DNA of 42,721 nt from a virus (taxonomy: Duplodnaviria; Heunggongvirae; Uroviricota; Caudoviricetes). Both the position numbers and the translations under genes were made by a program. Within the stretch, counting starts at the first letter, position 1; each line of letters begins with the position of its first letter. Of this stretch, positions 2,835-18,288 are shown one piece after another. The DNA lies in IMG/VR virus record IMGVR_UViG_2703718828_000007; one strand, 5' to 3'. The notes under the pieces are model-generated. The model did not search any database. It saw only the letters and a program-made list of their open reading frames with translations, and was not told the DNA's origin.

Positions 2835-5800
2835 TTATGCCTGAGTACGCAGCGCTTCAAGGCGGCGCAGGTCGAAGTCGTTCAGTTCGTCGGTGTAGTC
2901 AGCAGTGATTGGCGCTGGCCATTCACCTGTGTCGAATCCGGTTGCGATATTGCGCATCGCTTTGCGGTACTCGAGCATACCCAGCTCCAGTAGTTCAGCG
3001 GATGCCTCGATGATGGCGATCCAGTGGTAGTTCTCGTCTTTGTTGACGAAAATCCAGAAGAACTGATCCAGCGCTGCGGTTTCGCAGTACATAGCCGCGC
3101 TCAGGTGATAATCACGTTCAATAATTTCCCGGTGTAGCCTGGCGCGCAGGCTTTCCTGCTTAACATTCCACATGCTGATGGTTTTCAGGTCTGCACCTAT
3201 ACGCACGCCATCCAGGTCGATCTCAAGGTCAGGGCGCACACGAACTTCCAAGCCCGTCTCCTCGTCAAAACCAAAGTAGCTCACCTCAACGGCTCGGCTA
3301 GGGTGGGTCAGCAGCATGCCGGCGGTCGGGTGTGCCAGAAGCGCTTTTTGAATATTCAGCGCGGTGCTCAGCTGCTGGCGGGTGACCAGCACTTTTCCTT
3401 CCGGGTTATCGCGCCAGGCATCCAGCAGTTCGTCGGCAAATACGGCATCTGGTTTGACTGCCTTTACGGCCTGGATCATGTCTGCTTTGGTACCGGACAC
3501 TTTCAGTGGTGCCGGTTTCTGTGCTTCCTGAGCCACAAGGTCAGGGTTGATGATTGCCAACTGCTCCAGCAGCGCGTCACGGCTGCCGCTGGTTTTAACC
3601 GGCGGCGGCAGGGTGGCGTTGTACTCTTTAATGCATGCCTTCATTGCCGTCGCCGTCTGCTTCTGGTCACCATCAATACGCTGGAAGTCAGCTGGCAGCG
3701 CCATATAGTTCTGTGCCGTTTCTTCCAGGTTAGCGCCAAGCGGAACCTGCGGCGGCAGGGTGGCGTTGTACTCTTCCAGTAACACCTTGATGTCGTCGGC
3801 AGACAGCAGCGCCGGCAGGCTGGCATTGTGCTCATCGATAAAGGCGCGCAGGGTCGCGGCCGTTGTGAATGCGCCTTCAGGGATCACCGGTTCAACGCTG
3901 AATTCTGCGTCCAGTAGTTCAGGCTGCAACGCCAGCGCATGCACCAAGTTGCCCATGTCCAGCACCGCTGAGCGCTCTTTGACGATGGTTTTCTCTACGT
4001 GGCGCGCATTGAAGTACATCAGCGAAACGCGCGCATCTTTCACCTGGGTTGAGCTGATGCCGTTGGCGGCGTGGTAAACCTCGTTTGGCAGCCCTTCATA
4101 GCGGCCTGGCTCGAAATAAGCGGGATAAACAACAGCTGGTTCGTCAGATTGCGCTTCTGGCTCGGTTTGTGCTGCAACTGGTTCGGTTTGGCTTACAGAA
4201 TCGCTATTTTTGGCGACAGAATCCGTATTCTGGTTTACATCGTCCTTCTGGCTGGTATCTGACTCTTCACCAGACTCCAGACTGCTTTCGCCTGGCTGTA
4301 CTTCATCACCAGCTTGTTTTTCATCACTGACAGTTTCTTGAACCTGCACATTGCTGGTGGTCTCCGTAGCCTTTTTCGTGCCATGAGTTGCTGAGTTCTG
4401 CAGCAAAGCCGTAACGTCGAATATTCCGTTGCCGACATTTTTAACCAGTTCTTGTTCGACTTTCTGCGGTTGTGCTGCCGCTTCCTCTGCGCGGCGGCGT
4501 GCTCCTTCTTCACGCACGCGTTGCAGGTTCTCTTCGTGAGTGCAGAAGGATTTGCGCGGAGACTCCTTACCTTCAGGTTGGGGAATTTCCTGTGCTGCGG
4601 GTTCAGCCTCATGCAACGGCAATAACTCGACCGCGGAATTGAACGCGGCTGTCATGGTCTGGTTAACAAATTCCAGGTGAGCGACAGGAGTTAAATGAAT
4701 ATTTTCCGGTGCGATACGTACCAGGTTAAAAATAGCCGTGCGGTTAACACCCAGAACGCCTGGCTGATTGCGCAGGATGTTGCTCCATGATTTCCATGGT
4801 TCTTCTTTTTTGGTCACGATTTCTTTAGCGCGACGAAGAATGCTGCCCGGGATCTCGAAGTGGTTGAAGTCCATAGGCAGAAGGGCACACGCAATCTCTA
4901 AATCGAGAGTGTCCAGTGTGTGGTGTGCGTCAGGTCCACGGTCAGTGACGTAACCGCCGTCGGCATTAGTGCCGGAATCAGTACGCTGCACACTACTGAT
5001 GCGATTACCGGCGGCCCATTCGCGAACGAGGATACCGCGGTCGATGTGATCTGTAGCGAACCACAATTTCAAAAACTGGATTAAGGTTGCGAGTTCAGGG
5101 ATTTTTCCATCGACAGGGAAGACTTTCTTAACGGCATTCACGACTTTATGAATATCGTGCTCAATGGCTTTTTTGAATGCTTCCACATTCTCAGCTGCCA
5201 GCAGCAGGTTCTGGACGTACGCGTCATCGGTGTCCATCTCAAGGCGGACAATCTCATTTTTCTGCCCTGCGTCGATGTGATAGAGATATTCACCATCACC
5301 GATGAACTGAGCCAGTACGCGCTGGCGGAATGGCAGGGTGGCAACAACGATCAGGTTCGGTTGCTGTGTCTGCTGGGATTGCTCTTCGGTATCGACTTCA
5401 CCATCAACGACGCCACCTTCTGCCCGGCCGTTCTCGTCGGTCTGGATACCGTCCTCAACAGTGAGATCTTGACCCGTTGTAACGTCAGCAGCGTTGCTGG
5501 TTTCAGTTTTGAGCAACTGCAACTTACCACTGCGCCAGTCTTCTACCAGTTGATTGCGGTCACCGGCATCGGTGTTCACCCAGTCAGACATGAATGCAGC
5601 GATCAATCTTGGTTCGTGCTCTTCGTCTGGTGTGAAAATGTCCTTAACCGCCCGAATCATTTTCCACTCAGCATTCAGGCTGAGTTTGGCGGTCGCGGGC
5701 ACATCGTTCCTTGCCACAAGCAGGCTATGGAGATATGTATTGCCTTCATCCAGTGACATTTCGCTGGCAGCCAACTGCTGCTCTTTAGTGACGTGGGTTT

Positions 5801-6224
5801 GGTATTTATCGTTCATCAGATGGACGGCAAAGCGGACCGCTGGAGTACGGTTTTCAACCGGGACAATTTCGGACGCAGTCGCATCTTCAACGATTACGGT
5901 CGGAGTAGGTGTGTAGGGGGCGTAAACGGAACCAGTAGACACACCAGCGGCTTTTGGCAGCCAGGTGCGCCCATCGTCCTGAAGCTCGTAGCGATCACAC
6001 CAGGTAAAATCAACTTCACCTTCTTTCGGCAGGCCGTCGACAACTGGGAAATCAGTGCGAATCGGTTTGGCGTAGTCCTTACCCCGACCTGTTTCGATAC
6101 CTGCATCTTCCAGCGCAACATCCAGCATCAGATTGGCGCGAGCCTCGGTTTTAGCAGTGAACCAGACCACTGCATCTTGCTTTCCGGATTTCTGAGTGGC
6201 TTTAACCACATTAAAGAATTCCAT
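2835..6224 (-). CDS. Large RecE-like exonuclease (exonuclease VIII family) with repeat-containing linker
   Basis: 1129-aa ORF, gene order exonuclease then annealing protein as in Rac recE-recT; C-terminal region has nuclease-like character; internal (E/N)(H/Y)NA(S/T)LP repeats. Confidence 0.55.
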   Translation of the reverse strand: MEFFNVVKATQKSGKQDAVVWFTAKTEARANLMLDVALEDAGIETGRGKDYAKPIRTDFPVVDGLPKEGEVDFTWCDRYELQDDGRTWLPKAAGVSTGSVYAPYTPTPTVIVEDATASEIVPVENRTPAVRFAVHLMNDKYQTHVTKEQQLAASEMSLDEGNTYLHSLLVARNDVPATAKLSLNAEWKMIRAVKDIFTPDEEHEPRLIAAFMSDWVNTDAGDRNQLVEDWRSGKLQLLKTETSNAADVTTGQDLTVEDGIQTDENGRAEGGVVDGEVDTEEQSQQTQQPNLIVVATLPFRQRVLAQFIGDGEYLYHIDAGQKNEIVRLEMDTDDAYVQNLLLAAENVEAFKKAIEHDIHKVVNAVKKVFPVDGKIPELATLIQFLKLWFATDHIDRGILVREWAAGNRISSVQRTDSGTNADGGYVTDRGPDAHHTLDTLDLEIACALLPMDFNHFEIPGSILRRAKEIVTKKEEPWKSWSNILRNQPGVLGVNRTAIFNLVRIAPENIHLTPVAHLEFVNQTMTAAFNSAVELLPLHEAEPAAQEIPQPEGKESPRKSFCTHEENLQRVREEGARRRAEEAAAQPQKVEQELVKNVGNGIFDVTALLQNSATHGTKKATETTSNVQVQETVSDEKQAGDEVQPGESSLESGEESDTSQKDDVNQNTDSVAKNSDSVSQTEPVAAQTEPEAQSDEPAVVYPAYFEPGRYEGLPNEVYHAANGISSTQVKDARVSLMYFNARHVEKTIVKERSAVLDMGNLVHALALQPELLDAEFSVEPVIPEGAFTTAATLRAFIDEHNASLPALLSADDIKVLLEEYNATLPPQVPLGANLEETAQNYMALPADFQRIDGDQKQTATAMKACIKEYNATLPPPVKTSGSRDALLEQLAIINPDLVAQEAQKPAPLKVSGTKADMIQAVKAVKPDAVFADELLDAWRDNPEGKVLVTRQQLSTALNIQKALLAHPTAGMLLTHPSRAVEVSYFGFDEETGLEVRVRPDLEIDLDGVRIGADLKTISMWNVKQESLRARLHREIIERDYHLSAAMYCETAALDQFFWIFVNKDENYHWIAIIEASAELLELGMLEYRKAMRNIATGFDTGEWPAPITADYTDELNDFDLRRLEALRTQA

Positions 6225-6536: not shown

Positions 6537-6887
6537 CTAGTGGCTGAGTCCATGCCCCAGACCGTTCAGATAAACTTCAACCAGCAAATCCTTGGTGTAA
6601 GTCATTTCTACGCCGCGATGCAGATACAAACGTCCGCGAGCGTTAGCTGATGCCGTCCAGGTTGAGTCTTTGTGTTTGACGAGCATCCCCGGCTGAACTG
6701 CGCCGCGGTTTACTGTCTGTGTACCGTAGTGCTGATGAACCATGATGTTCTCCAGTTTTTCTGAGTGAACTTCGCTGGTGATGCCGCGGCGCTGATCTTC
6801 ACGGTTGAGCGTTTTAACTCTGCAATTCACCACCGCGAAGCTCACTCTGTGCTTTGCCCTTGTCGCCAGGCTGGCGGAACGTTTCAA
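6537..6887 (-). CDS. Hypothetical protein, first gene of leftward early operon (possibly Kil-like; true start may be internal)
   Basis: 116-aa ORF directly downstream of PL-like promoter. Confidence 0.35.
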   Translation of the reverse strand: MKRSASLATRAKHRVSFAVVNCRVKTLNREDQRRGITSEVHSEKLENIMVHQHYGTQTVNRGAVQPGMLVKHKDSTWTASANARGRLYLHRGVEMTYTKDLLVEVYLNGLGHGLSH

Positions 6888-6986: not shown

Positions 6987-7015
6987 ATTAAACACAATGT
7001 TTATTTACGTGTCAA
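6987..7015 (-). promoter_or_regulatory. PL-like leftward early promoter with overlapping operator half-sites
   Basis: Minus strand reads TTGACA, 17-nt spacer, TTTAAT; near-copy of the PR element at 9047-9075; palindromic AACA..TGTT motifs overlap. Confidence 0.45.
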
Positions 7016-7127
7016 CATAATGAGTGTTTTTATATAAACAAAAAGTTTAGTTGGTTGCGCTCGTTGGCACGAGTAGTATGTTTTGTGGTCTATTTTGTGG
7101 TTATAAAAAAATCGATGAGGGTGAGTT

Positions 7128-7334
7128 ATGGATCGTGACGAACTGGAAGAAGACCGCGCAGCGTTTATTGCGGGGGAGATTGGTGGCGCAGTTGTCAGTC
7201 TGATAGCTAACGGGATTGTGATCAGCCGCGATGCGATTGTGGATAGTCTAGAGGCTAAGCGCAGGGTAGTGGGAAACGTCATTCACAAGTGGGTATTGCG
7301 GGATGCGGCTGCTATGGTGAGAAAAGGGCAATAA
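7128..7334 (+). CDS. Hypothetical small protein (68 aa)
   Basis: ORF with GAGGGTGAG RBS; convergent with the repressor operon; followed by hairpin. Confidence 0.4.
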   Translation: MDRDELEEDRAAFIAGEIGGAVVSLIANGIVISRDAIVDSLEAKRRVVGNVIHKWVLRDAAAMVRKGQ

Positions 7335-7336
7335 AA

Positions 7337-7358
7337 AACCCAGTTCGGTAACTGGGTT
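7337..7358. terminator. Bidirectional hairpin terminator between convergent genes
   Basis: Perfect 9-bp stem AACCCAGTT/AACTGGGTT with 4-nt loop, A-run upstream and T-rich tract downstream. Confidence 0.45.
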
Positions 7359-7364
7359 ATTGCT

Positions 7365-7823
7365 TTATTCAACAGATGATGGGGGGGTCGGTGCTTTCTT
7401 AAAGATCGACCACTGAGAAATGTAGGTCAGCAACCTTGAGCTTAACTCGAGTTCTTTTTGTAATATTTCGTCATAACGTTTTTTTGCTGCTTGCATGGTC
7501 GCATCACTAGCGTGATTGTCATCCATAATGATCTTTAGCCTTTTCTTTTCTCGGCTTGAGCATATTGTAAATAACAGACCTGTAAATGACATTCCACCAA
7601 AATCCTTTAACGTTTTGATTACAAAAAGAAGAATCAAAGACAGAAAAGGAACAGATCTGTAGGCCCAATCACGAAACTCACCGTCAGGAAAGAAGATAGG
7701 AATAGCATCTGTAGCATAACCACATATGAGGGAGACAATTAGAAAAGGTAGTCCATTTTTAGCTACATTTTTAACGTTATCGTTAGCCATGATTTTTTCC
7801 CGAGAACGATTTCGAGTCAACAT
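7365..7823 (-). CDS. Small membrane protein (152 aa), third gene of repressor-linked cassette; SieB-like role possible
   Basis: Hydrophobic segments LPFLIVSLICGYATDAIPIFF and VPFLSLILLFVIKTL; start may be the internal MANDN Met. Confidence 0.5.
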   Translation of the reverse strand: MLTRNRSREKIMANDNVKNVAKNGLPFLIVSLICGYATDAIPIFFPDGEFRDWAYRSVPFLSLILLFVIKTLKDFGGMSFTGLLFTICSSREKKRLKIIMDDNHASDATMQAAKKRYDEILQKELELSSRLLTYISQWSIFKKAPTPPSSVE

Positions 7824-8166
7824 GTAACTTTTGTGTTTTGACTACATAATACGCAAATCCAATCTTAACTAACCAATAAGCTACTGGTATGAGTGCTGCG
7901 TAAAGAGGGATATAGTACATAACCTTACCTCCTGTTAACCACACTATAACACCTAGCATCACTATTAGCGCGACAGAAAATGCTTTCAGCCCAACACAGC
8001 TATCAGGATGTGAAACACTGTTCCTTAGCAACAATATCCTGGATTCATCAAGTGTGTAAGGAATATCGCCAACATGATTTTCGATTTTTGGGAAGGTCTC
8101 AAATACTTCAACCCGATCAATCGAAATAATTGAGCTTGATTGATGATCTAAGCAAACTGCAGCCAC
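7783..8166 (-). CDS. Small membrane protein (127 aa), second gene of repressor-linked cassette
   Basis: Two predicted TM segments (AFSVALIVMLGVIVWL, IPLYAALIPVAYWLVKIGFAYYVV); 2-nt gap to upstream gene. Confidence 0.5.
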   Translation of the reverse strand: MAAVCLDHQSSSIISIDRVEVFETFPKIENHVGDIPYTLDESRILLLRNSVSHPDSCVGLKAFSVALIVMLGVIVWLTGGKVMYYIPLYAALIPVAYWLVKIGFAYYVVKTQKLHVDSKSFSGKNHG

Positions 8167-8168
8167 TG

Positions 8169-8504
8169 TTATCCCTCTCGAACCTTTAGTGATACTCGGT
8201 TAGCAGCAAATGTGGCAATGAAACCACATTCTACACATATAACAGGGAATGCCCATATACCTCGGCCAGCTGAATGAGGTAGAGGAAGGGTAATTATTGC
8301 AGGATAGTCTTGACTATCTTCTCGTGGAGGAACTCCCCAAAGCGTATGCTTACAAAGCGGACAGGCCATCTCGCCATGTTTTTCTTCGAGGCGTTGAAAA
8401 TAATCTCGAAATTCTTGTCTTGATATTGATAGCGTCAATGCTGTTGTATTGACACTTTCCTGACTTTTTTCTTCTTCAACCTGTTCGCCCATCTCAGCTC
8501 TCAA
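8169..8504 (-). CDS. Zinc-ribbon protein (111 aa), first gene downstream of repressor
   Basis: CPLC ... CVEC motif pair; co-oriented with repressor gene, 99-nt gap. Confidence 0.5.
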   Translation of the reverse strand: MRAEMGEQVEEEKSQESVNTTALTLSISRQEFRDYFQRLEEKHGEMACPLCKHTLWGVPPREDSQDYPAIITLPLPHSAGRGIWAFPVICVECGFIATFAANRVSLKVREG

Positions 8505-8603
8505 TATAATGATAATTAACTGGTAAGTGAATTTTGCATATCGTTAAGATGTATCCCATTGGTACAGAAACATCTGAGGGGTAAGTAGCTTTTAACTACC
8601 GTG

Positions 8604-8999
8604 CTACTCACCATCCCCCTTAATCCGCCGTCCCATGTACTTGGCGTACAGTTCATCGAGTTCTTTCAACCGTAGAGATACGATCCGCAACATGTTCTGT
8701 TGTTCTTCTTCGTTTGGGAGTTGATTATAGAGTTCCAACAGTCTCCGTTCGTCGTGTCTCAAACCGTCCTTAGCATCCACGTCCTGACCTAGAACCCACT
8801 CAAGACTTACGCCTAGCGCATCGGCAAGTTTTATTGCTGAGCTTTTTCCTATCGCTCCTCTGACAAACCAGTTGTTGACTGATTGTGCGCTCACACCACA
8901 GATTCTCGCTATATCCGCTTTGGATATGCGCTTCTTCTCGATGATTTCATTTAACCGCCGAACCTGCGGGTTATCTGTTTGGTGTGTGTTTTTTCTCAT
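8604..8999 (-). CDS. Prophage repressor, XRE-family HTH (cI/RacR-like)
   Basis: 131 aa; HTH segment ISKADIARICGVSAQSVNNW; divergent from Cro-like gene; start at transcription start of PRM-like promoter. Confidence 0.7.
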   Translation of the reverse strand: MRKNTHQTDNPQVRRLNEIIEKKRISKADIARICGVSAQSVNNWFVRGAIGKSSAIKLADALGVSLEWVLGQDVDAKDGLRHDERRLLELYNQLPNEEEQQNMLRIVSLRLKELDELYAKYMGRRIKGDGE

Positions 9000-9007
9000 A
9001 TATCAAG

Positions 9008-9035
9008 ATTCTAAACTAAAAGTTTATCGCCTCAA
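9008..9035 (-). promoter_or_regulatory. PRM-like repressor maintenance promoter
   Basis: Minus strand TTGAGG, 16-nt spacer, TAGAAT; predicted start coincides with repressor ATG (leaderless, as lambda PRM). Confidence 0.4.
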
Positions 9036-9046
9036 CATTCATAATG

Positions 9047-9075
9047 TTGACTTGAACATAAACATAATGTTTAAT
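9047..9075 (+). promoter_or_regulatory. PR-like rightward early promoter with overlapping operator palindromes
   Basis: TTGACT, 17-nt spacer, TTTAAT; inverted repeats TCAACATT-CAT-AATGTTGA (9032-9050) and AAACAT-A-ATGTTT (9060-9072) overlap -35 and -10. Confidence 0.45.
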
Positions 9076-9102
9076 TTGGTTCGTTATTACTTGGAGCCAA
9101 AT

Positions 9103-9336
9103 ATGAAAGCACTTGATAAAGCAATATGCATCGTAGGGGGTGCAACCCGTTTAGCAGAAAAGCTCAATGTATCCCCAATGACGGTCAGTCACTGGCGTCA
9201 CCGTGACAATGGATTCGTACCGGCTAACCGTGTCATTCCTATTTTCAATGCTACAGGTGTAACTCCACATGAGTTACGCCCTGATTTGTACCTCAACCCT
9301 ACGGATGGATTACCGGCTCAGGAAGCGAGGGCATAA
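9103..9336 (+). CDS. Cro/YdaS-like small HTH regulator
   Basis: 77 aa from internal Met of track ORF 8872-9336; GGAG RBS 6 nt upstream; HTH-like ATRLAEKLNVSPMTVSHW. Confidence 0.6.
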   Translation: MKALDKAICIVGGATRLAEKLNVSPMTVSHWRHRDNGFVPANRVIPIFNATGVTPHELRPDLYLNPTDGLPAQEARA

Positions 9337-9338
9337 CC

Positions 9339-9878
9339 ATGCAGTCACTATCACTTCATCAAAATAGCGGATATCAAACGGCTGCGATGATAAATCGCAA
9401 TCAACCTGTCTCGGTAGATAAACATGACCAGATCCGCGATGCCGTTCGTGCGTGGGCGGGTGTAGATGGTCAGGATGTCGTTTCTGCTCTGATCATCGAA
9501 GAGTACCAGGCTCAAGGGGGAGACGAGATCACTTTCCCTGATGACCTCAGCCGACAGCGTCAGAAGCTTTTCCGCTTTCTGGATAACCATTTCAACAGCG
9601 AACGGTACCGCGAAAACGTTCGCCAGCTGACTCCGGCAATCCTCGCTGTCCTGCCGATTGAATACCGCAATCGTCTGCTACCAGAAGACAACGTAATGGC
9701 TCGTCTGGCAAGGCTGGAGAAGGAAACCAGCGAAGCGAAGATTGCTGTCGCAATGGATGCGCCACGTCATCAGAAGCTGAAAGAGTTGAGCGAGGGGATC
9801 GTGGAGATGTATCGCGTTGACCCTGGGTTAACCGGTCCGTTGATGGAAATGGTGCAGATTATGCTGGGGGCTATATGA
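9339..9878 (+). CDS. YdaT-like protein (Rac-type early module)
   Basis: 179 aa; segments EEYQAQGGDE and TPAILAVLPIEYRNRLL resemble Rac YdaT as recalled; position after cro-like gene. Confidence 0.45.
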   Translation: MQSLSLHQNSGYQTAAMINRNQPVSVDKHDQIRDAVRAWAGVDGQDVVSALIIEEYQAQGGDEITFPDDLSRQRQKLFRFLDNHFNSERYRENVRQLTPAILAVLPIEYRNRLLPEDNVMARLARLEKETSEAKIAVAMDAPRHQKLKELSEGIVEMYRVDPGLTGPLMEMVQIMLGAI

Positions 9879-14754: not shown

Positions 14755-15444
14755 ATGAACACTCAATTCCTCGAATACGTGCGCCAGCAGCTGATGGTGG
14801 CTACCGCCGATTTAAGTGGTGCGACGAAAGGGCAGTTGATGGCGTGGCTTGAGAACGCGCAGTTTGATACGGGAACGTTTAAACGTAAGAAGCCTCGAAT
14901 ATTGGATGAAGTGACCGGGAAAATGATTACGCTTGATAACCCACCGATTCCCGGCAAACAGTCGCATACCAAGGGTTCGCATATTCCCTTGGTGCAACCG
15001 GTTGAGTATTCAACGGCATCGTGGCGCCGCGCACTGATGACGCTCGAAGAACACCAGAAGGCCTGGTTGCTATGGAACTATAGCGAGAATGTGAGTTGGG
15101 ATAATCAGGTGCTGATTACTCAGTGGGCGTGGTCGAAATTTTGCGAGCATCTGGCCGGGAGGAAGGTGGCGAAGAAGACCGTCGAACGGTTGCGACAGCT
15201 TATCTGGCTGGCGGCACAGGATGTGAAGGCTGAATTGGCTGGGCGTGATGTCTATCAATATGGTGATCTGGCTGCGCTGGTGGGAGTTAACAAAACAAAC
15301 TGGTCTCAAAATTACGTGGAACATTACAATGTAATTATCAGCCTGTATAAGGGACTCGACTCCAAGGCGCTACTTCATGTTTCGCGATCACGTTCACAAC
15401 AAAAGGCAGCAAACTATCAGCAAGGTATTGCAAAAATGAACTAA
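14755..15444 (+). CDS. Late-gene antiterminator, Q-like (tentative)
   Basis: 229 aa; last gene before PR'-like promoter, tR'-like terminator and lysis region. Confidence 0.45.
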   Translation: MNTQFLEYVRQQLMVATADLSGATKGQLMAWLENAQFDTGTFKRKKPRILDEVTGKMITLDNPPIPGKQSHTKGSHIPLVQPVEYSTASWRRALMTLEEHQKAWLLWNYSENVSWDNQVLITQWAWSKFCEHLAGRKVAKKTVERLRQLIWLAAQDVKAELAGRDVYQYGDLAALVGVNKTNWSQNYVEHYNVIISLYKGLDSKALLHVSRSRSQQKAANYQQGIAKMN

Positions 15445-15866: not shown

Positions 15867-16622
15867 ATGTCAGGACAGCCTGAGTCAAAAGAACAAGAAC
15901 TGCTTGCAACAATCCTCGATTACTTCCAGAAGGGAGAAGTCCCGGATACAGACACTATTGCGGAAATTGAGCACGACATTGCTAAACTTCCAATAAGTGA
16001 GCGCGCACATGCGTATGCATGGCTTAATGGAACTCTCGGGCGTCACTCTGATGCAGTACGTTTATTCAAAGACGCGATGAGCTCTGGGAGTCCAACGATC
16101 GCACAAAACTACTTGGCGTATCTTTCTCGTTCGGCTCATAACTATGAGCATCGCGTTGAGTTGTTTAGAATAGTTGAGCTTTTCCCTTCACATGAACTGA
16201 GGCTTGTAGCAAGAAACGCTGCATTTTGTATCGGCAACGACAAGTTGGTTAAAAAGTTCTCCCTCAAAATGGCTGCTCTTTATGATGGCCAAGAGCGAGA
16301 GGATATAATCAATCAGGGAAATTATATGGCTGAACAGATTGTTGATTTCAAAAACGCTACCCGTCTTTCTTCTCGAGAACTAGAAGCCCTTTGCGATCAA
16401 GCTGAAGAGATTGCGAACAAGCGCGGTATTAACTGTTCAAGTGTTAGCTATTATCTTGGTGGAGATGATGACAATGCATTCATCGTTAGAGCCCAAACTG
16501 CTGATCCGCAGGTTTTAGCTGAAATGAACATGGAACTGTTGGTTTTGCTCTCAGATGATAGTTATCGGAACAGCCCTTTTACATCCTGGTTCCAAAGCGA
16601 TGAAAAAAGAGGGATTTACTGA
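15867..16622 (+). CDS. Hypothetical protein (251 aa), gene 1 of AT-rich two-gene cassette
   Basis: No recognisable motif; predicted helical; stop overlaps gene 2 start (TGATG). Confidence 0.6.
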   Translation: MSGQPESKEQELLATILDYFQKGEVPDTDTIAEIEHDIAKLPISERAHAYAWLNGTLGRHSDAVRLFKDAMSSGSPTIAQNYLAYLSRSAHNYEHRVELFRIVELFPSHELRLVARNAAFCIGNDKLVKKFSLKMAALYDGQEREDIINQGNYMAEQIVDFKNATRLSSRELEALCDQAEEIANKRGINCSSVSYYLGGDDDNAFIVRAQTADPQVLAEMNMELLVLLSDDSYRNSPFTSWFQSDEKRGIY

Positions 16623-17026
16623 TGAGCGTATCGGGGAAAGATTTTATTGTTTTTGCTGGTAAATGCATTTCTCACAACGATGAAATCGGTTACAGAAACG
16701 CCATTGGTCGAGCGTATTATGGAGTTTATCATGAAACGCTTGATAAGCTTGAGAAATGCCCAAACAAGTCGTCACACCAAGCTGTTCGCGACTATCTTAC
16801 AAATGATGCATGGTTAAAAGGAAATGAGCCGTTTGAAAAAATGAAACTCATTTCTATGGGAACAATGCTGAGACATTTGCATACCCGACGTAAATGGGCA
16901 GATTACGAGCTTGATAGAACTTTAAGTAAGGCTGATGCGGAAGCTATATTGATAATGGCTAACAAAGCTATTGACACCCTTCAGCAGATGTATGAGCAGG
17001 TTTATCCATCCGAACCTGCTGCTTGA
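16622..17026 (+). CDS. Hypothetical protein (134 aa), gene 2 of cassette; tentative HEPN-like R-x6-H spacing
   Basis: GRAYYGVYH segment; translationally coupled to gene 1; terminator follows. Confidence 0.6.
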   Translation: MSVSGKDFIVFAGKCISHNDEIGYRNAIGRAYYGVYHETLDKLEKCPNKSSHQAVRDYLTNDAWLKGNEPFEKMKLISMGTMLRHLHTRRKWADYELDRTLSKADAEAILIMANKAIDTLQQMYEQVYPSEPAA

Positions 17027-17235: not shown

Positions 17236-18288
17236 ATGAAAAATACTGTAAATATAAACAGTGTCGAGTTAGTCAACGCTGATAGCCTGCAATACATCGC
17301 CACTCTCCCTGATAACTCCATTGACCTGATAGTCACGGATCCGCCGTACTTCAAAGTGAAACCCAACGGCTGGGACAATCAGTGGAAAGGGGATGAGGAT
17401 TATCTTCGCTGGCTTGATATGTGCCTCGCACAATTCTGGCGAGTGCTTAAACCTGCTGGCAGTCTTTATCTTTTCTCCGGTCACCGCCTGGCGGCAGACA
17501 TTGAGATCATGATGCGTGAGCGGTTCAACGTCCTGAACCACATCATCTGGGCTAAACCGTCGGGCCGCTGGAATGGCTGTAATAAAGAGAGTCTGCGCTC
17601 TTACTTCCCTGCAACAGAGCGCATCCTCTTCGCTGAGCATTACCAGGGGCCGTATAAACCAAAGAGCGACGGTTACGCGGAGAAGGGAAGCGAGCTGAAG
17701 CAGCATGTAATGACTCCCCTAATTTCTTATTTCCGGGATGCACGTGAAGCGCTTGGCATAACCTCAAAACAAATAGCCGATGCGACTGGAAAGAAGAACA
17801 TGGTGTCTCACTGGTTCAGCGGTAGCCAGTGGCAATTACCGAATGAATTAGACTACCGGAATCTTCAGTCCCTTTTCACGCAGGTAGCCATCGAAAAGCA
17901 CCAGAACGGCGAACTGGCAACACCACACCACCAGCTGGTGGCTATGTGGCATTCGTTAAATCGCAAGTATTCAGAGCTGCTCGAAGAGTACAAATCGCTT
18001 CGGCGGCATTTCTCTGTTTCCGTATCCGTTCCTTATACCGACGTCTGGACACATAAACCCGTTCAGTTTTACCCAGGTAAACACCCATGCGAAAAACCCG
18101 CTGACATGTTGCGGCAGATCATCAACGCCAGCAGTAAGCCTGGTGATGTGGTGGCTGATTTCTTTATGGGGTCCGGTTCGACCGTGAAAATCGCGCTGGA
18201 ACTTGGCCGCCAGGCTATCGGCGTTGAACTCGAGGAGGACAGGTTTAGCCAGACGGTGGAGGAAATAAGGGCGTTAACAGGGGAATAA
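17236..18288 (+). CDS. DNA methyltransferase, beta-class amino-MTase (N6-adenine or N4-cytosine), orphan
   Basis: Motif IV DPPY near N-terminus (LIVTDPPYF) and motif I FFMGSGST near C-terminus; no restriction endonuclease partner recognised. Confidence 0.8.
   Translation: MKNTVNINSVELVNADSLQYIATLPDNSIDLIVTDPPYFKVKPNGWDNQWKGDEDYLRWLDMCLAQFWRVLKPAGSLYLFSGHRLAADIEIMMRERFNVLNHIIWAKPSGRWNGCNKESLRSYFPATERILFAEHYQGPYKPKSDGYAEKGSELKQHVMTPLISYFRDAREALGITSKQIADATGKKNMVSHWFSGSQWQLPNELDYRNLQSLFTQVAIEKHQNGELATPHHQLVAMWHSLNRKYSELLEEYKSLRRHFSVSVSVPYTDVWTHKPVQFYPGKHPCEKPADMLRQIINASSKPGDVVADFFMGSGSTVKIALELGRQAIGVELEEDRFSQTVEEIRALTGE

Follow-up and report, generated by a model that had tools for sequence, protein, structure and literature searches.

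A cassette of three small genes, here called A, B and C, is located directly behind the repressor gene of a lambdoid, rac-like Escherichia coli prophage of ~40 kb, and we identify it as repressor-linked cargo of the lysogeny module, of the same kind as rexAB, bstA or toxin–antitoxin (TA) genes, whose proteins have no known relatives. The prophage makes up the IMG/VR record IMGVR_UViG_2703718828_000007, and the whole 42,721 nt of this record are referred to as the window. All three genes are encoded on the minus strand, A (107 aa) at 8169–8492, B (127 aa) at 7783–8166 and C (141 aa) at 7365–7790, behind a 131-aa helix-turn-helix (HTH) repressor on the same strand (8604–8999). An earlier reading of this DNA, made from the letters alone (the sequence-only reading), had described three co-oriented small genes downstream of the repressor in the position of lambda rexAB, and we found all of them present and tightly packed, with the block lying between the repressor and the terminator of the immunity region. 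Its interpretation, a membrane-associated exclusion or defence module of the lysogen, is supported in part. With regard to function, the cassette may be a conflict module that is co-transcribed with the repressor and acts as a regulated, Rex-like membrane effector, a reading to which we assign a probability of roughly 0.45.

We examined the cassette in 35 related loci, namely 14 Logan, NCBI and JGI loci found via homologues, 20 IMG/VR viral contigs and the isolated Escherichia phage PHB10. Each of the 35 carries A, B and C complete, intact, contiguous and in the same order. The homologues belong to Enterobacteriaceae (E. coli, Klebsiella, Kluyvera, Cedecea and Enterobacter) and form 6 clusters for A, 13 for B and 17 for C at 90% identity; all of them are annotated only as ‘hypothetical protein’. 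This annotation would fit the explanation that the open reading frames (ORFs) are spurious or decaying and have no function. However, the cassette genes show nonsynonymous divergence (dN) of 0.13–0.44 at saturated synonymous divergence (dS), the median dN/dS is ~0.19 for A, 0.22 for B and 0.06 for C, and the proteins are still 42–76% identical despite the saturated synonymous sites, C being the most conserved of the three. As the genes are intact in every related locus and dN/dS is low, A, B and C must be more than chance ORFs; together with the invariant motifs of the proteins and the occurrence of the cassette in an isolated phage, these conservation data effectively refute the spurious-ORF explanation, the probability of which is negligible. 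We further observed that the pairwise identities of A, B and C are strongly correlated with each other (r = 0.85–0.95) but only weakly with those of the repressor (r = 0.4–0.5). C proteins that are 72–84% identical adjoin unrelated repressors, and in one locus (L033) the repressor is 92% identical while the cassette is only 42–44% identical. Taken together, A, B and C are real genes, and they move and evolve as one cassette.

The alignment of homologues and the annotation by the Prokaryotic Genome Annotation Pipeline (PGAP) moved two of the three start codons downstream. The sequence-only reading had given sizes of 111, 127 and 152 aa, of which the value for B holds; for A, the TTG-initiated ORF at 8169–8504 (111 aa) is shortened to the conserved ATG at 8492, and for C, the ORF at 7365–7823 (152 aa) is shortened to the conserved ATG at 7790. 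B starts with GTG 2 nt past the stop codon of A, with an AGGGA Shine–Dalgarno sequence inside the end of A, and C starts with an ATG inside the last codons of B, an overlap of 8 nt (ATGGCTAA). The 2-nt gap between A and B and the 8-nt overlap between B and C suggest translational coupling in an operon-like layout.

According to the alignment and an AlphaFold2 (AF2) model, A is a soluble protein with an acidic, disordered and poorly conserved N-terminus, a helix at residues 25–39, the motif CPLC at 44–47, a beta-sheet and the motif CVEC at 86–89. These two motifs had been noticed before as zinc-ribbon motifs, and they are real: C44, C47, C86 and C89 are invariant in 38 sequences of the family and are placed around the small beta-sheet in the model. 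Thus, A is a predicted zinc-ribbon protein with two CxxC knuckles. For the other two proteins, hydrophobic helices were found in agreement with the transmembrane (TM) helices that the sequence-only reading had predicted. B consists of a soluble N-terminal domain of ~58 residues (1–58) bearing an invariant motif of the type PKIENxVGDIPY, a predicted TM hairpin (~62–79 and 84–108) with an invariant GGK turn (GGK(V)M(Y)YIPLY), and a basic C-terminal tail. C is predicted to be all-helical (helices 4–33, 38–63, 69–89 and 96–125); its first two helices are clearly hydrophobic and the third is amphipathic or hydrophobic, resulting in two to three TM helices, followed by a long charged C-terminal helix or tail that ends in PTPP. 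Hence, B and C are predicted to be small helical membrane proteins with basic cytoplasmic tails. In the most divergent cassettes of this composition (L032 and L034–L038; e.g. L036, 4340–4807), B reaches ~155 aa and carries an extra C-terminal tail of ~30–40 residues past the TM hairpin.

The sequence-only reading had proposed a comparison with rac-like prophages to define the variable insert. Sister prophages of E. coli with a repressor at least 98.5% identical and the same YdaS and YdaT carry three other, unrelated gene sets in the slot behind the repressor. The first (L002, 2860–3722) encodes a 149-aa protein and a 136-aa coiled-coil protein with a C-terminal TM helix, the second (L003, 2860–4249) YoaK, HicA and HicB together with a 141-aa protein, and the third (L004, 2853–3817) a 101-aa protein and a coiled-coil/TM protein of 217 aa whose tail has the form (AP)n; of these proteins, only HicAB and YoaK are characterised. 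Consequently, four different cargos are found behind the same repressor, or five when the cassette of L033 is counted. Homology to the sister prophages breaks off in the final bases of the repressor ORF (8605; 8613 in L004) and restarts either inside the terminator (7341) or at 7132. From these breakpoints at the repressor end and the terminator, the variable unit is 7342–8604, and the slot behind the repressor is a proven cargo hotspot. A gene for a 32-aa small membrane protein of the YoaK family was observed between repressor and cargo both in an A-B-C locus (L006, 5648–5746) and in the HicAB locus (L003, 4151–4249), and probably in L028 as well. In the IMG/VR contig L037 the ORF directly upstream of A (3504–3902) encodes a 132-aa protein with an N-terminal TM helix instead of an HTH repressor, and may be extra cargo stacked in the slot.

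The unit 7342–8604 has a GC content of 39.7% compared to a window mean of 51.2% (standard deviation 4.1), the lowest of all 1263-bp segments of the window, which bears out the earlier remark that the block is more AT-rich than its neighbours. This moron-like composition, the cassette's own terminator and the uncharacterised nature of the membrane proteins B and C would agree with lysogenic-conversion cargo of benefit to the host in a way unrelated to phages, such as in stress, at the envelope or in bacteriocin tolerance. We regard this explanation as very improbable: none of the A-B-C cassettes in the loci examined was found outside a prophage immunity region, and the slot is enriched for TA and abortive-infection functions.

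The repressors next to the cassette belong to at least four unrelated types, but they are always HTH proteins and always co-oriented with the cassette. Among them are HTH proteins of 123–131 aa in the position of RacR, a second HTH type of 134 aa and CI-like S24-peptidase proteins of several lineages with 211–251 aa, so that the cassette goes with repressors both with and without the S24 autocleavage domain. The distance from the repressor to A is usually 37–123 nt, with some loci showing 219–393 nt, taken up in L006 by the YoaK micro-ORF, or one small intervening ORF. The repressor of the window had been called ‘cI/RacR-like’. It matches Pfam HTH_3 and Phage_CI_repr, and the likeness to RacR comes down to its position and a short HTH segment of 27 residues shared with K-12 RacR; we therefore rejected the assignment as a RacR orthologue. 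The constant vicinity of a repressor (35 of 35 A-B-C loci, and most distant A-family genes as well) could also mean that the cassette is an accessory of the phage's own lysis–lysogeny switch, for instance by feeding in a membrane-linked signal or by modulating induction or the stability of the repressor, and zinc-ribbon proteins often mediate protein–protein or protein–nucleic-acid contacts. However, the same repressor, YdaS and YdaT are found elsewhere with unrelated cargo or only a TA pair, so that the cassette is dispensable; cassette and repressor do not co-evolve; and repressors of at least four unrelated families adjoin the cassette, some having the S24 domain and others lacking it, which makes a specific partner relationship unlikely. 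Because of this dispensability and the free pairing with unrelated repressors, we consider a role in the switch quite improbable.

The arrangement of predicted transcription signals is compatible with expression of the cassette together with the repressor. A consensus scan revealed a sigma-70 promoter similar to the maintenance promoter PRM of lambda on the minus strand at 9008–9035 (TTGAGG-16-TAGAAT). Only 8 nt separate its end from the repressor ATG, which would leave the repressor mRNA nearly without a leader, and transcripts that read through into the cassette probably start here. This promoter overlaps a palindromic, operator-like site in the intergenic region between repressor and ydaS (AACATTATGAATGTT, 9034–9048, a perfect palindrome), which we treat as the right operator (OR). 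Four matches resembling this palindrome were found in the window compared to 1.3 expected by chance. One of them, AACATAATGAGTGTT at 7014–7028 upstream of the kil-like gene, has 2 mismatches to the OR palindrome and may be a weak, putative left operator (OL); in that case the cassette would sit between OL and OR, like rexAB in lambda.

Between the repressor stop codon and A lies a cassette-specific leader of 111 nt (8493–8603, minus strand), which contains a weak promoter-like site (8531–8503) according to the promoter scan; the leaders of other cassettes, with 37–123 nt, are not conserved. Neither the terminator scan nor RNA folding detected a canonical terminator between the repressor and A. 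RNA folding predicts a stem-loop at 8576–8618 (minus strand) with a 14-bp stem over the repressor stop codon and no U-tract after it, and the region around the stop codon is overall not more stable than shuffled sequences (z = −0.68). The stem-loop may be an attenuator, a processing element or a stability element. In two other loci (L036 and L038) a different GC-rich hairpin was observed at the repressor/cargo junction, and such hairpins could modulate read-through or mRNA stability. A known RNA in the region, such as the antisense RNA of a type I TA system, was considered and dropped, as no Rfam family reached its gathering score there. At the other end, the strong bidirectional hairpin that the sequence-only reading had placed at 7337–7358 is an intrinsic terminator active by prediction on both strands, with a 9-bp stem and T-runs on both strands; it closes both the cassette and a convergent 68-aa gene and the variable slot has its left breakpoint here (7341).

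An exhaustive search with an A profile gave 46 representatives at 50% identity, nearly all of 84–117 aa, in which the four cysteines and one tryptophan are invariant. A scan of GTDB genomes with the A profile and a metagenome scan with P0065 gave no match. From the subset of members whose genomic context was retrieved, three architectures can be read. Type I is the A-B-C cassette described above. Type II, found in six IMG/VR contigs (L040–L045, ~3670–4950) and in Yersinia phage vB_YenM_30.14 (L050, OM046629, 3480–4479), has an A-like gene directly behind a CI-like repressor, and then an acidic soluble protein of 86–103 aa and a soluble protein of 124–138 aa (C′), which belongs to phrog_5954 and carries the invariant motifs WHYHxG, GDxTS..LHY and HPPF. 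C′ has no match in Pfam, PADLOC, NCBIfam or the PDB; an impression from its motif pattern that it might be a RelE/YafQ-like toxin was unsupported by the Pfam, NCBIfam and PDB profile searches and was given up. Type III has a single partner behind the A-like gene, a membrane protein with one pass and a coiled coil at its C-terminus, as observed in two IMG/VR contigs behind a CI-S24 repressor (L046 and L047, 3501–4312) and in Metapseudomonas resinovorans (L052, 3501–4306). The type III partner in L046 and L047 contains ENRQGDIMY at the position equivalent to ENHVGDIPY of B. This is a weak match of 13 residues with an hhalign probability of 10%, and we dropped the ENxxGDIxY motif as a link between the two proteins, keeping it as a hint. 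A protein of 751 aa in the representative library (P0051) shows seven separate stretches matching the A profile, which are either tandem A-like zinc-ribbon repeats or an artefact of assembly or gene calling.

As the zinc-ribbon protein is present in all three architectures, A is the constant component while the effectors vary. Such a layout, in which the core is conserved and the effectors can be exchanged, is typical of defence and TA systems. It is conceivable, though we think it doubtful, that the A family constitutes the sensor or adaptor of a hitherto unrecognised modular family of prophage immune systems, most of them repressor-linked, with interchangeable effectors. If true, A-family systems would protect lysogens from heterologous phages by a mechanism unrelated to catalogued defence systems. 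The wider family also bears on the description of the module as ‘membrane-associated’, which applies to B and C but not to A: A is soluble, is the sole component kept across the wider family and occurs elsewhere with soluble partners.

We propose the following mechanism for the cassette. In the lysogen it would be transcribed by read-through from the maintenance promoter of the repressor and would act as an inter-phage conflict module, with a logic similar to Rex or to TA systems. As the cytoplasmic zinc-ribbon protein, A would sense, regulate or neutralise, and the effector would be a small inner-membrane complex of B and C. Once A is triggered or lost in the course of superinfection, B and C would impair the energetics or the integrity of the membrane, stopping the incoming phage by abortive infection or exclusion.

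Database searches placed A, B and C in no known system in the libraries searched, in line with the suggestion of the sequence-only reading that the type is unfamiliar. Against Pfam-A (hmmscan, E ≤ 0.1) only sub-threshold, unrelated matches were obtained (Rad50 zinc hook and DUF7156), NCBIfam gave no match, and PADLOC-DB v2.0.0 returned zero families for the three proteins at E ≤ 1; the type II partner proteins and one distant A relative were likewise without a PADLOC match. Sequence-profile searches of the PDB gave nothing for A, B, C or the type II C′ protein, and in Foldseek searches against BFVD the model of A retrieved generic zinc ribbons only and that of C nothing. No homology to RexA or RexB was seen in Pfam or PADLOC. 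Holin families gave no Pfam or PHROG match either; the cassette is located in the immunity region, and the annotated holin of a near-identical prophage lies elsewhere. In the literature, queries with RefSeq accessions, phage names and the phrog id brought up no paper about A, B or C.

Several points weigh against the proposed conflict module. None of these searches revealed a defence, exclusion, TA or holin protein that is homologous or similar in fold, and for this reason the assignment rests on guilt by position. The AF2 models reach only moderate confidence, with a mean predicted local distance difference test score (pLDDT) of 71.7 for A and 66.7 for C, and the roles given to A, B and C come from conservation patterns only. 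The stem-loop over the repressor stop codon and the weak internal promoter-like site would also allow other patterns of transcription. The cassette is rare, being present in 5 of 5426 complete E. coli genomes, and the A-family gene of Metapseudomonas resinovorans has no repressor within ~1.7 kb upstream, where lipoprotein-like genes are found instead.

Two other readings start from the same position and the same proteins. According to the first, the cassette is an addiction or TA module that stabilises the prophage, with B and/or C as membrane toxins, A as the labile antitoxin and any anti-phage activity incidental. The slot does hold bona fide TA pairs, namely hicAB in L003 and paaA2-parE2 in CP-933P (PMC8630535). 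In addition, the cassette genes are tightly coupled, and the type II variant resembles a small acidic protein with a larger partner. The N-terminus of A is disordered and acidic, as is that of many labile antitoxins. However, the cassette has three genes instead of two, A has no DNA-binding domain, and no type II toxin or antitoxin domain and no similarity to toxin or antitoxin families was detected in Pfam, NCBIfam or PADLOC. We consider addiction alone unlikely, bearing in mind that it overlaps strongly with the proposed conflict module because many TA modules act as abortive-infection systems. According to the second, B and C would block DNA entry as a constitutive superinfection exclusion (Sie) system of the SieA, Imm or HK97 gp15 type, with A as an assembly factor or regulator and with neither cell death nor sensing. 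The Sie genes of lactococcal, P22-like and HK97-like phages encode small membrane proteins that are expressed in the lysogen, and the cassette encodes two small predicted inner-membrane proteins, probably expressed from the lysogeny module. Moreover, the slot is known to hold exclusion genes (10.1101/2020.07.13.199331). Against this stands the core of the family, a cytoplasmic zinc-ribbon protein; its soluble partners in other lineages do not sit easily with a mechanism that is a membrane barrier only. Most known Sie systems consist of one gene, and no match of A, B or C to SieA, SieB or Imm families was found in Pfam or PHROG, including the SieB-type homology that had been named as a possibility from the sequence. 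Simple exclusion is hence the more unlikely of the two readings.

As it stands, the cassette is a candidate well suited to experiments and not yet a demonstrated system. In the lysogen, few parts of a lambdoid prophage are more highly expressed than the region behind the repressor, and this slot has already been the source of RexAB, BstA and TA modules. With 1.26 kb and precise boundaries, the cassette is a clean and compact candidate for a new lysogen-expressed conflict system, for which isogenic prophages with other cargo in the same slot provide natural swap controls, and other bacteria combine its core protein A with different sets of effectors. If the cassette is a defence system, it would represent a new family in the anti-phage repertoire and a small, tractable model of a cytoplasmic sensor controlling a membrane effector; to our knowledge, such control is still unresolved for RexAB after decades. 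If it is only an addiction module, it would extend the list of membrane-acting toxins in immunity regions.

The region 7000–9400 is 99.8–100% identical to prophages of five complete E. coli genomes, and in E. coli EcE.CRE.COL the matching prophage is flanked by kch/yciY and yciI/tonB. The minus strand of the window carries, in order of position, the RecE gene (2835–6224), a YdaE-like gene and a Kil-type FtsZ-inhibitor gene (ORF 6537–6887). Divergent from the repressor, on the plus strand, are YdaS (9103–9336) and YdaT (9339–9878), with the replication genes O and P 3′ of them on the same strand. The convergent 68-aa gene on the plus strand (7128–7334, phrog_3975) encodes a protein with a hydrophobic central segment; the idea that it is a truncated SieB was rejected, as the protein is unrelated to SieB. 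In L003 and L004 this gene is replaced by a 64-aa allele that is only 36% identical, and in other cassette-bearing prophages a DUF2767 gene is located at its position. Only one other stretch of the window is roughly equal to the cassette in AT content; it starts near 15401, immediately 3′ of the Q antiterminator gene (14755–15444), in the slot where Stx phages carry stx. It contains ORFs of 251 and 134 aa without a Pfam match (region 15867–17026 and 17236–18288, plus strand), followed by an N6/N4 DNA methylase, and the region downstream of Q differs from the otherwise near-identical prophage in NZ_CP191804.

Finally, we compared the cassette with known sequences and systems. The PHROG family phrog_4293 comprises sequence relatives of A, but the match to the window protein (E = 4e-7) spans only the 25 residues 85–109; distant A-family members match it over residues 5–103, nearly their full length, and no other PHROG signals were obtained for A, B or C. 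The Rac prophage of K-12 shares the backbone, in the same order, of recE, ydaE and kil, a convergent gene, cargo, a repressor and ydaS-ydaT; there, however, the slot behind racR holds the unrelated cargo ydaG-ydaF, and the convergent gene is sieB instead of the gene for the phrog_3975 protein. In the Salmonella prophage BTP1, bstA is located behind cI in a conserved position that corresponds to the rexAB site, shows high expression in the lysogen and works through abortive infection (10.1101/2020.07.13.199331). Like the cassette, BstA is restricted to prophages and keeps its position downstream of diverse repressors, but it is a single large, soluble DNA-binding protein with the cognate DNA element aba for self-immunity and has no homology to A, B or C. 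In CP-933P, paaR2-paaA2-parE2 is co-transcribed from the leaderless promoter PRM933P opposite ydaS-ydaT, as determined by experiment, and paaA2-parE2 is addictive (PMC8630535). Both prophages have a repressor without S24 domain divergent from ydaS-ydaT with same-strand cargo behind it, and the promoter geometry predicted here equals that of CP-933P, whereas the cargo of CP-933P is a soluble TA pair of the ParE type and that of the window a zinc-ribbon protein with two membrane proteins and no TA-family match. Compared to RexAB of lambda, the cassette has three genes instead of two and no sequence or family match; RexA has ~279 aa whereas A is a zinc ribbon of 107 aa, and RexB has four TM helices versus two to three each in B and C. 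Yet the two systems share a slot directly 3′ of the repressor and co-oriented with it, within the immunity region and closed by a terminator, they are both dispensable cargo, and they would both combine a cytoplasmic component with a small polytopic component of the inner membrane.

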